From Escherichia coli O127:H6 str. E2348/69 (GTDB lineage Bacteria > Pseudomonadota > Gammaproteobacteria > Enterobacterales > Enterobacteriaceae), in NCBI RefSeq assembly GCF_000026545.1, contig NC_011601.1: a DNA stretch of 64,000 nucleotides; one strand, given 5' to 3'. The notes below the pieces were generated by a model that searched no databases, was not told the DNA's origin, and saw only the letters and a list, made by a program, of their open reading frames with translations. The position numbers and the translations under genes were made by a program. Shown here in pieces: positions 14,426 to 41,770 of this stretch; the stretch's first letter is position 1, and every line of letters starts with the position of its first letter.

Positions 14426-15979
14426 ATGAGTCATCGTGCACGACACCAATTACTGGCGTTTCCGGGCATTATCTTTTTAGTTCTCTTTCCCATCATTCTG
14501 TCGCTATGGATTGCCTTCTTTTGGGCAAAATCAGAAGTGAATAATCAGCTCCGAATCTTTGCTCAGCTGGCGTTGGATAAATCTGAGCTGGTCATTCGTC
14601 AGGCAGATTTAGTGAGCGATGCAGCTGAACGCTATCAGGGGCAAGTTTGCACTCCAGCCCATCAAAAGCGAATGTTGAATATTATTCGTGGCTATCTTTA
14701 TATTAATGAATTGATTTATGCTCGTGATAACCATTTTTTATGCTCATCGCTGATAGCGTCTGTAAATGGCTATACGATTGCACCGGCCGATTATAAGCGC
14801 GAACCTAACGTTTCTATCTATTATTACCGTGATACGCCTTTTTTCTCTGGCTATAAAATGACCTACATGCAGCGGGGAAATTATGTGGCGGTTATCAACC
14901 CTCTCTTCTGGAGTGAAGTGATGTCTGATGATCCGACATTGCAATGGGGTGTGTATGATACGGTGACGAAAACCTTTTTCTCGTTAAGCAACGAGGCCTC
15001 GGCAGCAACGTTTTCTCCGCTGATTCATTTGAATGATTTAACCGTACAACGAAATGGCTATTTATATGCGACAGTTTATTCGACAAAACGCCCAATTGCA
15101 GCCATTGTTGCGACTTCATATCAACGTCTTATAACTCATTTTTATAATCATCTTATTTTTGCGTTGCCCGCCGGTATTTTGGGGAGTCTTGTTCTGCTAT
15201 TACTCTGGCTACGTATTCGACAAAACTATTTGTCTCCCAAACGCAAATTGCAACGCGCCCTCGAAAAACATCAACTTTGCCTTTATTACCAGCCAATAAT
15301 CGATATCAAAACAGAAAAATGTATCGGCGCTGAAGCGTTGTTACGTTGGCCTGGTGAGCAGGGGCAAGTAATGAATCCGGCAGAGTTTATTCCGCTGGCA
15401 GAAAAGGAGGGGATGATCGAACAGGTAACTGATTATGTTATTGATAATGTCTTCCGTGATTTGGGCGCGTATCTGGCAACACATACCGATCGCTATGTTT
15501 CTATTAACCTGTCAGCCTCCGATTTTCATACCTCACGGTTGATAGCGCGAACCAATCAGAAAACAGAGCAACATGCGGTGCGCCCGCAGCAAATTAAATT
15601 TGAAGTGACTGAACATGCATTTCTTGATGTCGACAAAATGACGCCGATTATTCTGGCTTTCCGCAAGGCCGGTTACGAAGTGGCAATTGATGATTTTGGT
15701 ATTGGCTACTCTAACTTGCATAACCTTAAATCATTGAATGTCGATATTTTGAAAATCGATAAATCGTTTGTTGAGACGCTGACCACCCACAAAACCAGTC
15801 ATTTGATTGCGGAACACATCATCGAGCTGGCGCACAGCCTGGGATTAAAAACGATCGCTGAAGGTGTCGAAACTGAGGCGCAGGTTAACTGGCTGCGCAA
15901 ACACGGCGTGCGCTATTGCCAGGGATGGTTTTTTGCGAAGGCGATGCCGCCGCAGGTGTTTATGCAATGGATGGGGTAA
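14426..15979 (+). CDS. pdeC: Cyclic-di-GMP phosphodiesterase PdeC (CSS sensory domain + EAL)
   Basis: About 517 aa from ATG 14426 (track start 14417 is a TTG); N-terminal TM, periplasmic CSS region, second TM, C-terminal EAL domain; exact C-terminus not verified against K-12. Confidence 0.85.
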
Positions 15980-15981
15980 TT

Positions 15982-16005
15982 ACCCGCGCGGGAGTTAACG
16001 CGCGG
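15982..16005. terminator. Bidirectional terminator hairpin between convergent pdeC and soxS
   Basis: Hairpin CCCGCGCG-GGAGTTAA-CGCGCGGG. Confidence 0.55.
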
Positions 16006-16014
16006 GCAATAAAA

Positions 16015-16338
16015 CTACAGGCGGTGGCGATAATCGCTGGGAGTGCGATCAAACTGCCGACGGAAAACGCGGGAGAAGGTCTGCTGAGAGACATAACCCA
16101 GGTCCATTGCGATATCAAAAATCGGACGCTCGGTGGTGCGCAACTCAACGGCGGCCAGTAACAGACGGCGCTGGCGAATGTAATCGCCAAGCGTCTGATG
16201 CGTCACCGTGCGGAACATCCGTTGCAAGTACCACTTTGAATAGCCAGATTTTTTTGCGACGACATCAATGTTAAGCGGCTGGTCAATATGCTCGTCAATC
16301 CATGCGATAAGATCCTGAATAATTTTCTGATGGGACAT
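16015..16338 (-). CDS. soxS: Superoxide-response transcriptional activator SoxS (AraC family)
   Basis: 107 aa; MSHQKIIQDLIAWIDEHIDQPLNIDVVAKKSGYSKWYLQRMF... Confidence 0.97.
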   Translation of the reverse strand: MSHQKIIQDLIAWIDEHIDQPLNIDVVAKKSGYSKWYLQRMFRTVTHQTLGDYIRQRRLLLAAVELRTTERPIFDIAMDLGYVSQQTFSRVFRRQFDRTPSDYRHRL

Positions 16339-16394
16339 AAATCTGCCTCTTTTCAGTGTTCAGTTCGTTAATTCATCTGTTGGGGAGTATAATT

Positions 16395-16412
16395 CCTCAA
16401 GTTAACTTGAGG
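16395..16412. promoter_or_regulatory. SoxR operator in the soxS promoter spacer
   Basis: Perfect 18-bp palindrome CCTCAAGTTAACTTGAGG in the soxS-soxR divergent intergenic region. Confidence 0.85.
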
Positions 16413-16423
16413 TAAAGCGATTT

Positions 16424-16888
16424 ATGGAAAAGAAATTACCCCGCATTAAAGCGCTGCTAACCCCCGGCGAAGTGGCGAAACGCAGCGGTGTGGCGGTATC
16501 GGCGCTGCATTTCTATGAAAGCAAAGGGTTGATTACCAGTATCCGTAATAGCGGCAATCAGCGGCGATATAAACGTGATGTGTTGCGATATGTCGCAATT
16601 ATCAAAATTGCTCAGCGTATTGGCATTCCGCTCGCAACCATTCGTGAAGCGTTTGGCGTGTTGCCAGAAGGGCATACGTTAAGTGCGAAAGAGTGGAAAC
16701 AGCTTTCGTCCCAATGGCGAGAAGAGTTGGATCGGCGCATTCATACCTTAGTGGCGCTGCGTGACGAACTGGATGGATGTATTGGTTGTGGCTGCCTTTC
16801 GCGCAGTGATTGCCCGTTGCGTAACCCGGGCGACCGATTAGGAGAAGAAGGTACCGGCGCACGCTTACTGGAAGATGAACAAAACTAA
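16424..16888 (+). CDS. soxR: Redox-sensing [2Fe-2S] MerR-family regulator SoxR
   Basis: 154 aa; MerR HTH N-terminus and C-terminal [12 protein letters not shown] cluster-binding motif. Confidence 0.97.
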
Positions 16889-17021
16889 AGCGCCACAAGG
16901 GCGCTTTAGTTTGTTTTCCGGTCTTTGTCTTTCTCTCTATCCCGCTGGTACACAGGAGGGTTTCCCCCGACGTCAACACACCTCATTCGAGCACGTGGTG
17001 GAGGTTCCGGTTGGTGTTGAT
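16882..17021 (-). ncRNA. ryjA: Candidate small RNA RyjA/SraL, antisense to and overlapping the soxR 3' end
   Basis: K-12 has an sRNA of about 140 nt here from memory; a TACAAT -10-like hexamer on the minus strand at 17033-17028; hairpin + T-run at 16887-16917 serves as a shared terminator; boundaries approximate. Confidence 0.4.
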
Positions 17022-39622: not shown

Positions 39623-41770
39623 TTACGCCAGTGCCGCTTCGCGCAGGCGAGTTTTCAACTTGTTGTACTCGTCAATCACGTACTGCTCGGCGGCGCGCTG
39701 ATCGGCGATCGGCTCGACGCGCACGGCGCAGTATTTGTATTCCGGCGTTTTCGTAATCGGGCTTAAGTTTTCGGTAACCAGCTCGTTACAGGCACCAATC
39801 CACCACTGGTAGGTCATGTAAATCGCCCCTTTGTTCGGACGATCGCTGACCTGCGCACGGGTGATAATTTTGCCTTTACGCGAGTGCACCCAAACCAATG
39901 CCTCATCTTCAATACCCAGACGTTTGGCGTCTTCGGTATTGATTTGTGCGTAGCCAGGTTCATCAGCCAGCGCCGCCAGTGCCGCACAGTTACCGGTCAT
40001 CGAACGGCAAGAGTAGTGACCAACTTCACGCACCGTTGACAGTACCATCGGGTACTCGTCGGTGAGTTTGTCGATTGGCGCGACCCAGTCGCAGGTGAAG
40101 AACTGCGCCAGACCGTTCGGGGTATCAAACTTCTCTTTAAACAGATAAGAAGTCCCCTGATCGGCATCTGAAGTATCCCGGCAAGGCCACTGAATGAAGC
40201 CCAGTTCGCCCATTTTTTCGTAAGTCGCACCGTAGAAATCCGGGCACAGATGACGCAACTCATCCCAGATCTCCTGGGTGTTGTTGTAGTGCATCGGATA
40301 ACCCATACGGGTGGCGATTTCACTGATAATCTGCCAGTCCGTTTTCAGATCCCATTTCGGTTCAACCGCTTTGAAGAAACGCTGGAAGCCACGGTCAGCC
40401 GCAGTAAACACGCCTTCATGCTCGCCCCACGACGTTGACGGTAAAATAACATCCGCCGCCGACGCGGTTTTGGTCATAAAGATGTCCTGAACGATGACCA
40501 GTTCCAGATCTTCAAAGGCTTTACGTACTGCCGACAGCTCCGCGTCAGTTTGCAGCGGATCTTCGCCCATAATGTACGCGGCACGCACTTCGCCATGCGC
40601 TGCGCGGTGCGGCAGCTCGCTGATGCGATAGCCGGTATGAGCAGGCAGGCTTTCCACGCCCCAGGCTTTGGCGAATTTCTCGCGGTTAGCCGGATCTTTC
40701 ACGTACTGGTATCCCGGATACGTATCCGGCAGCGCGCCCATATCGCAGGCACCCTGCACGTTGTTCTGACCACGAACCGGGTTTACACCCGCATGCGGCT
40801 TACCGAGGTTACCAGTCAGCATCGCGAGGCTGGTCAGAGAACGCACGGTTTCCACGCCCTGGTAGAACTGGGTTACACCCATGCCCCACAGGATGGCGGC
40901 GCTTTTCGCCTGGGCATACATCCGCGCCGCCTGACGAATCTCACTGGCGCTGACGCCGGTGATATCTTCAACCGACTCCGGCGTGTAGCCTTCAACGATT
41001 TTACGATACTCTTCAAAGCCTTCTGTACGGGAAGCGACGAAAGCTTTGTCGTACAGGTTTTCTTCAATAATGACATGGCCCATCGCATTCAACAGCGCGA
41101 TGTTCGAGCCGTTTTTCAGTGCAATGTGCATGTCAGCAATGCGCGCGGTTTCAATTTTGCGCGGATCGCAGACGATAATTTTCGCCCCGTTACGTTTAGC
41201 GTTAATTACGTGATTCGCCACGATTGGGTGGGAATCCGCCGGGTTGTACCCGAAAACGAACACTAAATCGGTATTATCAATTTCGTTAATAGCATTGCTC
41301 ATTGCGCCATTACCGACCGATTGGTGCAGACCTGCAACCGATGGGCCGTGTCAGACACGAGCGCAGCAGTCAACGTTATTGGTACCAATAACGGCGCGCG
41401 CAAATTTTTGCATTACATAGTTGGTTTCGTTACCCGTACCACGCGAGGAGCCGGTCGTCTGGATGGCATCCGGACCGTACTTCTCTTTGATGGCGCTCAG
41501 GCGCTCGGCAACGTAATTCAGTGCCTCATCCCAGGAAACAGGTTCGAGTTTGCCGCCACGCTGGCGACGGATCATGGGGGTTTTCAGGCGCGGGGTCAGG
41601 ATCTGGGTATCGTTAATGAAATCCCAGCCATAATAACCCTTCAGACACAGGGTACCCTGGTTGGTTTTCCCCTGCGCTGCCTCCGCCCGGACGATTTTGC
41701 CGTTATCGACGACCAGGTTGATTTTGCAACCTGATGCGCAATAGGGGCAAACCGTGACGACTTTTTTCAT
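39623..41770 (-). CDS. fdhF: Formate dehydrogenase H (FdhF), selenocysteine-containing molybdoenzyme
   Basis: 715 codons with in-frame TGA at 41351-41353 (codon 140, selenocysteine); the two track ORFs 41351-41770 and 39623-41302 are one gene; N-terminal Fe-S cysteines CPYCASGC. Confidence 0.95.
41305..41350 (-). other. SECIS mRNA hairpin directing selenocysteine insertion at the fdhF UGA
   Basis: Minus-strand sequence immediately 3' of the UGA reads CACGGCCCATCGGTTGCAGGTCTGCACCAATCGGTCGG, a stem-loop matching the fdhF SECIS as I remember it. Confidence 0.8.

Follow-up and report, generated by a model that had tools for sequence, protein, structure and literature searches.

The SoxR operator of the soxS promoter in Escherichia coli O127:H6 str. 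E2348/69

The soxRS locus

The window, that is, the whole 64-kb stretch of DNA analyzed in this study, contains the divergently transcribed genes soxS (16015-16338, minus strand) and soxR (16424-16888, plus strand), separated by an intergenic gap of 85 bp (16339-16423). The regulated target SoxS is a 107-aa protein of the AraC/XylS family identical to its K-12 counterpart (228 bits on NF007584, cut-off 174), and the operator-binding protein SoxR is a 154-aa member of the MerR family (248 bits on TIGR01950, cut-off 116.9). Both genes score above the curated NCBIfam cut-offs, which bears out the location in a divergent soxS/soxR intergenic region that a preliminary description of this DNA had proposed for the palindrome considered below. 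The models of CueR, ZntR, and MerR score far under their cut-offs on this SoxR, in which the CX2CXCX5C motif (residues 119-130) with the [2Fe-2S] ligands C119, C122, C124, and C130 is intact. SoxR is identical to the protein of PDB entries 2ZHG and 2ZHH at 153 of 154 residues, the sole difference being G74R. The crystal structure 2ZHG was reportedly determined by Watanabe et al. in 2008.

The gene neighborhood pdeC-soxS-soxR-ryjA-ghxP agrees with the K-12 annotation. A 981-bp query across the soxRS locus matches 5425 of 5426 complete E. coli genomes, with the target annotated as soxS in 5425 of the 5426, and is 100% identical in Nissle 1917 and ATCC 11775-type strains. Of the 5426 matches to the soxRS locus in complete E. 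coli assemblies, three are on records labelled as plasmids; possible explanations are a mis-assigned replicon or a plasmid carrying a large piece of the chromosome.

Several minor features of the locus are as follows. The start-codon context GATTTATG is common to soxS and soxR and is mirrored at both ends of the intergenic region, forming an 8-nt inverted repeat CATAAATC / GATTTATG at 16336-16343 and 16419-16426. The stop codon of soxS is TAG, not TAA. The convergent neighbor pdeC ends with a TAA stop (15977-15979) at the position where K-12 has CAA, leaving the C-terminus of PdeC 11 aa shorter, and the hairpin CCCGCGCG...CGCGCGGG (15983-16006, 8-bp stem), which is coding in K-12, here lies between the convergent pdeC and soxS genes. 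On the other side, the small RNA gene sraL/ryjA (16881-17021, minus strand), identified by Rfam RF01408 at 153 bits (gathering score 39), runs toward soxR, the two genes having the last 8 nt of soxR in common; they appear to use one hairpin of 13 pairs (16882-16912) as a shared bidirectional terminator.

An 18-bp palindrome identical to the published SoxR box

A repeat search confirmed the 18-bp perfect inverted repeat claimed earlier. The sequence CCTCAAGTTAACTTGAGG at 16395-16412 is made up of two arms of 9 nt each, 16395-16403 and 16404-16412; they are complementary at 100% of positions, have no intervening nucleotide, and meet in a TTAA center; the dyad symmetry ends at 9+9 and extends no further outward. 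The palindrome is 11 bp away from the soxR ATG.

Palindromic symmetry by itself is weak evidence and statistically not unusual. The window contains two perfect palindromes of at least 18 bp, and at least one perfect 18-bp palindrome was present in 33.5% of 200 dinucleotide-preserving shuffles (mean 0.4 per shuffled window), therefore the case rests on sequence identity and conservation. The expected count of the exact 18-mer is about 8e-7 per window; allowing up to three mismatches, 0.04 matches are expected in the 64-kb window against one observed, at 16395-16412, and no further SoxR-box-like site was found at this threshold.

The other long perfect palindrome of the window, CGTTATTGGTACCAATAACG (20 bp, 41374-41393), lies within fdhF (39623-41770, minus strand), in a stretch encoding ..VIGTNNV..; the in-frame selenocysteine UGA (41351-41353) follows about 20 nt downstream. 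Rfam SECIS_2 confirmed the SECIS element of fdhF at 41304-41358, with 87 bits where the gathering score is 70. The palindrome itself has no evident regulatory function and may be of chance origin.

Alignment with K-12 MG1655 (NC_000913.3) gave 100% identity over 121 bp (16320-16440). The locus is the same as that of K-12 in every base of the 85-bp intergenic region, the gene order, the 19-bp spacer and hexamers of the soxS promoter, and the SoxS protein; it differs only in the SoxR G74R substitution and in synonymous changes confined to the flanking genes, with the operator and promoter free of differences. The K-12 soxS promoter and its SoxR box are said to have been described by Hidalgo and Demple in 1994 and 1997 and by Hidalgo et al. 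in 1998. The E. coli SoxR box is quoted in the literature as 5'-CCTCAAGTTAACTTGAGG (PMC4411124), to which the palindrome of the window corresponds at 18 of 18 positions.

The soxS promoter and the probable soxR promoter

A custom scan that allowed spacers of 15-21 bp identified, on the minus strand, a soxS -35 hexamer TTTACC (16416-16411) and a -10 hexamer TATACT (16391-16386), separated by an over-long spacer of 19 bp (16410-16392). The standard promoter scan reported no soxS promoter, because it is limited to spacers of 16-18 bp. The SoxR box fills 16 of the 19 spacer positions, and the trinucleotide AAT separates it from the -10 hexamer. The first two bases of the operator, CC, are at the same time the last two of the -35 hexamer, so that the palindrome does not lie strictly within the spacer. 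Thus the two hexamers do flank the palindrome on the soxS strand, as the preliminary description held, with the refinement that 2 bp of it belong to the -35 hexamer. This TTTACC-19 bp-TATACT arrangement, together with the identity to K-12 and to the published box, supports the identification of the palindrome as the SoxR operator in an over-long soxS promoter spacer. The same geometry is known from the literature: a dyad flanked by the soxS -35 and -10 elements is bound by the SoxR dimer, and the imperfect 19-bp spacer is corrected once oxidized SoxR distorts the DNA (PMC4411124). The SoxR-DNA crystal structure 2ZHG has been described, as has the kink at the dyad center that MerR-family activators acting on 19-bp spacers typically have (PMC9909328). 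Two further papers, PMC7228920 and PMC8063818, contain nothing specific on SoxR operator geometry.

On the plus strand, the custom scan found a perfect TATAAT (16388-16393), which is likely the -10 hexamer of soxR. It shares positions with the soxS -10 hexamer on the other strand, and its end lies 1 bp short of the operator. A weak candidate -35 hexamer, TTCGTT (16364-16369, plus strand, two of six matches to TTGACA), precedes it with an 18-bp spacer, and the TTCGT core of this candidate is partly conserved in the enteric alignment described below. The right operator arm contains the tetranucleotide GAGG (16409-16412, plus strand), which lies 11 nt upstream of the ATG and is a possible Shine-Dalgarno sequence of soxR. 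We infer the exact start sites of soxS and soxR, the assignment of the soxR hexamers, and the role of GAGG as a ribosome-binding site from these positions.

A TATAAT adjoining the SoxR site fits the published autorepression of SoxR. The site has been placed both downstream of the soxR promoter -10 element and between the -35 element of soxS and its -10 element, and SoxR binds it whether oxidized or reduced and in either form keeps its own gene repressed (PMC6612552). The native PsoxR/PsoxS element has also been described as bidirectional, with overlapping parts (PMC9067924). Hence the earlier assignment of the palindrome to soxS holds and is to be extended, since the same site also serves the autorepression of soxR (PMC6612552).

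Conservation in E. coli and other Enterobacterales

The intergenic region was aligned as a footprint across 13 Enterobacterales from the genera Escherichia, Citrobacter, Enterobacter, Superficieibacter, Klebsiella, Pantoea, and Rosenbergiella, among which SoxR identity falls to about 67%. The sole long invariant block is the 32-bp sequence CTTTACCTCAAGTTAACTTGAGGAATTATACT (16417-16386), comprising the soxS -35 hexamer, the spacer with the operator, and the -10 hexamer; the flanks diverge. These data indicate that the operator and both hexamers are under evolutionary constraint beyond that of the flanks. Altogether, such constraint has three independent lines of support: this footprint, the E. 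coli population, and the comparison across phyla.

Within E. coli, 5401 of 5426 complete genomes carry the 32-bp core, each of them a single time. Identity over the 85-bp intergenic region amounts to at least 99% in 5380 of 5420 genomes; for the 981-bp stretch that includes coding sequence, this level of identity is reached in only 1040 of 5425.

SoxR boxes in other phyla

A search with the pattern CCTCAAGNNNNCTTGAGG, using one genome per species, yielded at least 120 loci, 119 of them usable; this set is a sample, not a census. The pattern fixes the arms, so that arm variation is not measurable from it, and the matches listed are a mixture of true SoxR boxes, chance matches, and terminator hairpins.

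Among the matches listed, TTGACC or TTTACC occurs in the same register as in the window at 81 of 119 boxes, and in 71 of these 81 a -10-like hexamer (A2 and T6) follows exactly 19 bp downstream; at distances of 16-18 or 20-22 bp, such a hexamer was seen in 0-12 of the 81 in-register boxes listed. A SoxR homolog is encoded within 500 bp of 28 of the boxes listed. Nearly all of these listed soxR-adjacent boxes lie 2-44 bp upstream of the soxR start, and in 27 of the 28 the in-register promoter is divergent from soxR. The central 4 bp are TTAA in all 12 enteric soxR-adjacent boxes among the matches listed, and the 16 non-enteric ones have 15 different centers.

The remaining matches listed comprise eight terminator-like hairpins with runs of A and T and 30 unclassified sites (of 119); they are the chance background expected of a 14-base pattern in about 300 Gb. 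In the eight hairpin cases, found in Bacteroidota and other genomes, the CCTCAAG/CTTGAGG arms form terminator-like stems with no SoxR homolog nearby. Such stems are a case of convergence by chance, and they warn against naming a SoxR box on the strength of its arms only.

Several Streptomyces genomes carry two or three separate boxes, each with a TTGACC promoter and a -10 hexamer at a 19-bp spacing, and with no soxR nearby; among the matches listed, the centers of the Streptomyces boxes are often CATG or CGCG. This pattern fits a multi-gene regulon under direct SoxR control, as opposed to the single soxS target in enterics.

The non-enteric boxes, for instance those of Streptomyces, Pseudomonas, and the mfsA-soxR region of Stenotrophomonas maltophilia (PMC4411124), share with the enteric operator the CCTCAA- arm, the overlap of the box with the -35 element, and the 19-bp spacer. 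As in the window, their targets are divergent from soxR and the box covers the region of the soxR start. In contrast to the enteric promoter with its TTTACC, they usually have TTGACC as the -35 hexamer and a variable central 4 bp. Further, non-enteric SoxR drives effector genes such as efflux pumps and oxidoreductases directly, whereas enteric SoxR drives a second regulator, soxS. A dyad operator within a 19-20-bp spacer is also common to the MerR/merT, CueR/copA, ZntR/zntA, and BmrR/bmr systems (PMC9909328), and these MerR-family relatives, like SoxR, are bound in both states and activate by kinking and untwisting the spacer (PMC9909328). They differ from SoxR in the recognition sequence and in the signal, which is a metal or a drug rather than oxidation of a [2Fe-2S] cluster.

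The operator as a switch, and alternative explanations

Taken as a whole, the site at 16395-16412 is almost certainly the SoxR operator of the soxS promoter, working as a MerR-type switch by 'activation by DNA distortion'. No observation made here speaks against this reading. It is a textbook element that has already been fully described. Binding, redox switching, DNA distortion, and autorepression are expected here from the literature on the identical K-12 sequence. The SoxR homodimer would occupy the 18-bp dyad in either redox state. The 19-bp spacer, 2 bp over the 17-bp optimum, would hold the soxS hexamers out of phase for sigma-70, so that basal transcription should be low. Redox-cycling compounds would oxidize the [2Fe-2S] clusters of SoxR, and the bound protein would then kink and untwist the DNA at the central TTAA; the untwisting would restore the register of the hexamers and turn on soxS, whose product would in turn activate its regulon. 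The same dimer, situated immediately downstream of the opposite-strand TATAAT, would cover the soxR start site predicted from the promoter geometry, and soxR should for this reason be repressed in either redox state.

One alternative is that the palindrome works at the RNA level, folding into a hairpin that serves as a terminator, an attenuator, or a stability element of a transcript running through the intergenic region. Either strand, if fully transcribed, could form a 7-bp stem with a 4-nt loop (-9.2 to -9.5 kcal/mol, z from -2.8 to -4.1), and the same arms do occur in the eight terminator-like hairpins among the 119 cross-species matches listed. However, the soxS mRNA is predicted from the promoter geometry to start downstream of 16386 and the soxR mRNA near 16400, so that neither should contain both arms, and RNA from 16400 onward has no structure (z = +0.57). 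Further, from Actinomycetota to Enterobacterales the matches listed preserve the arm sequence itself, not only its pairing, in a fixed register relative to the -35 element, and no U/T run follows the stem on either strand. We thus consider a function as an RNA hairpin highly improbable. An intrinsic terminator at 16395-16412 in particular was rejected: there is no U run, the terminator scan reported nothing at these positions, and the stem needs both arms to be transcribed.

Still less probable is a chance palindrome, or the operator of another regulator, adjacent to soxR by coincidence: the shuffling results above and the second palindrome in fdhF without an evident regulatory role would allow it, but a chance palindrome is excluded by the exact identity of the 18-mer to the published SoxR box and to K-12 and by the footprint, in which the 18-mer is invariant across 13 Enterobacterales with divergent flanks, and the alternative as a whole is further opposed by the published ChIP or footprinting of SoxR on the identical K-12 sequence (PMC6612552), by the lack of a second copy in the window even with three mismatches, and by the divergent soxR at 27 of 28 soxR-adjacent boxes and the 19-bp-spaced promoter across phyla among the matches listed.

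On the SoxR operator reading, the SoxR-soxS switch of this strain is canonical and intact, free of operator or promoter mutations that would suggest constitutive or defective soxS expression. The soxRS system controls the response to superoxide and redox-cycling drugs and adds to multidrug resistance via AcrAB-TolC and micF, and electrogenetic and NADPH biosensor circuits use the soxS promoter as a standard part. For the window, the value of the assignment lies in correct annotation only and not in new biology.

Variants of SoxR and of the soxS promoter

The G74R substitution, at soxR codon 74 (16643-16645), is defined relative to K-12 and PDB 2ZHG; T38S, often reported together with it, is absent. 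A 30-mer specific for the G74R allele is present in 1132 of 5426 complete E. coli genomes (21%), compared with 3592 for the K-12 allele. Since G74R (with T38S) has been reported not only in levofloxacin-resistant isolates but also in one that was fully susceptible (PMC4317672), it resembles a lineage polymorphism more than a constitutive mutation.

All 32 bp of the core are frozen in Enterobacterales, including the central TTAA and the AAT trinucleotide, both of which vary freely in other phyla. A speculative explanation, to which we give little credence, is that several functions are stacked on this stretch, namely, the SoxR operator, the face-to-face overlapping -10 elements of PsoxS (TATACT) and PsoxR (TATAAT), the soxR start, and possibly the GAGG Shine-Dalgarno sequence, and that on such an unchanged operator SoxR G74R might move the set-point of soxS, basal or induced.

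Finally, one of the 5426 genomes, that of E. coli E138 (NZ_AP022351.1, locus 519-1303), has its soxS promoter interrupted by IS1X4, an IS1-family element of about 767 bp; the 9 bp duplicated at the target, TAATTCCTC, correspond to positions 16390-16398 of the window. The soxS gene of E138 retains only the -10 hexamer and 4 bp of the operator, and the intact SoxR box with the -35 hexamer remains on the soxR side, about 0.8 kb off. SoxR-dependent induction of soxS should be lost in this strain, unless the IS1 element provides a promoter.
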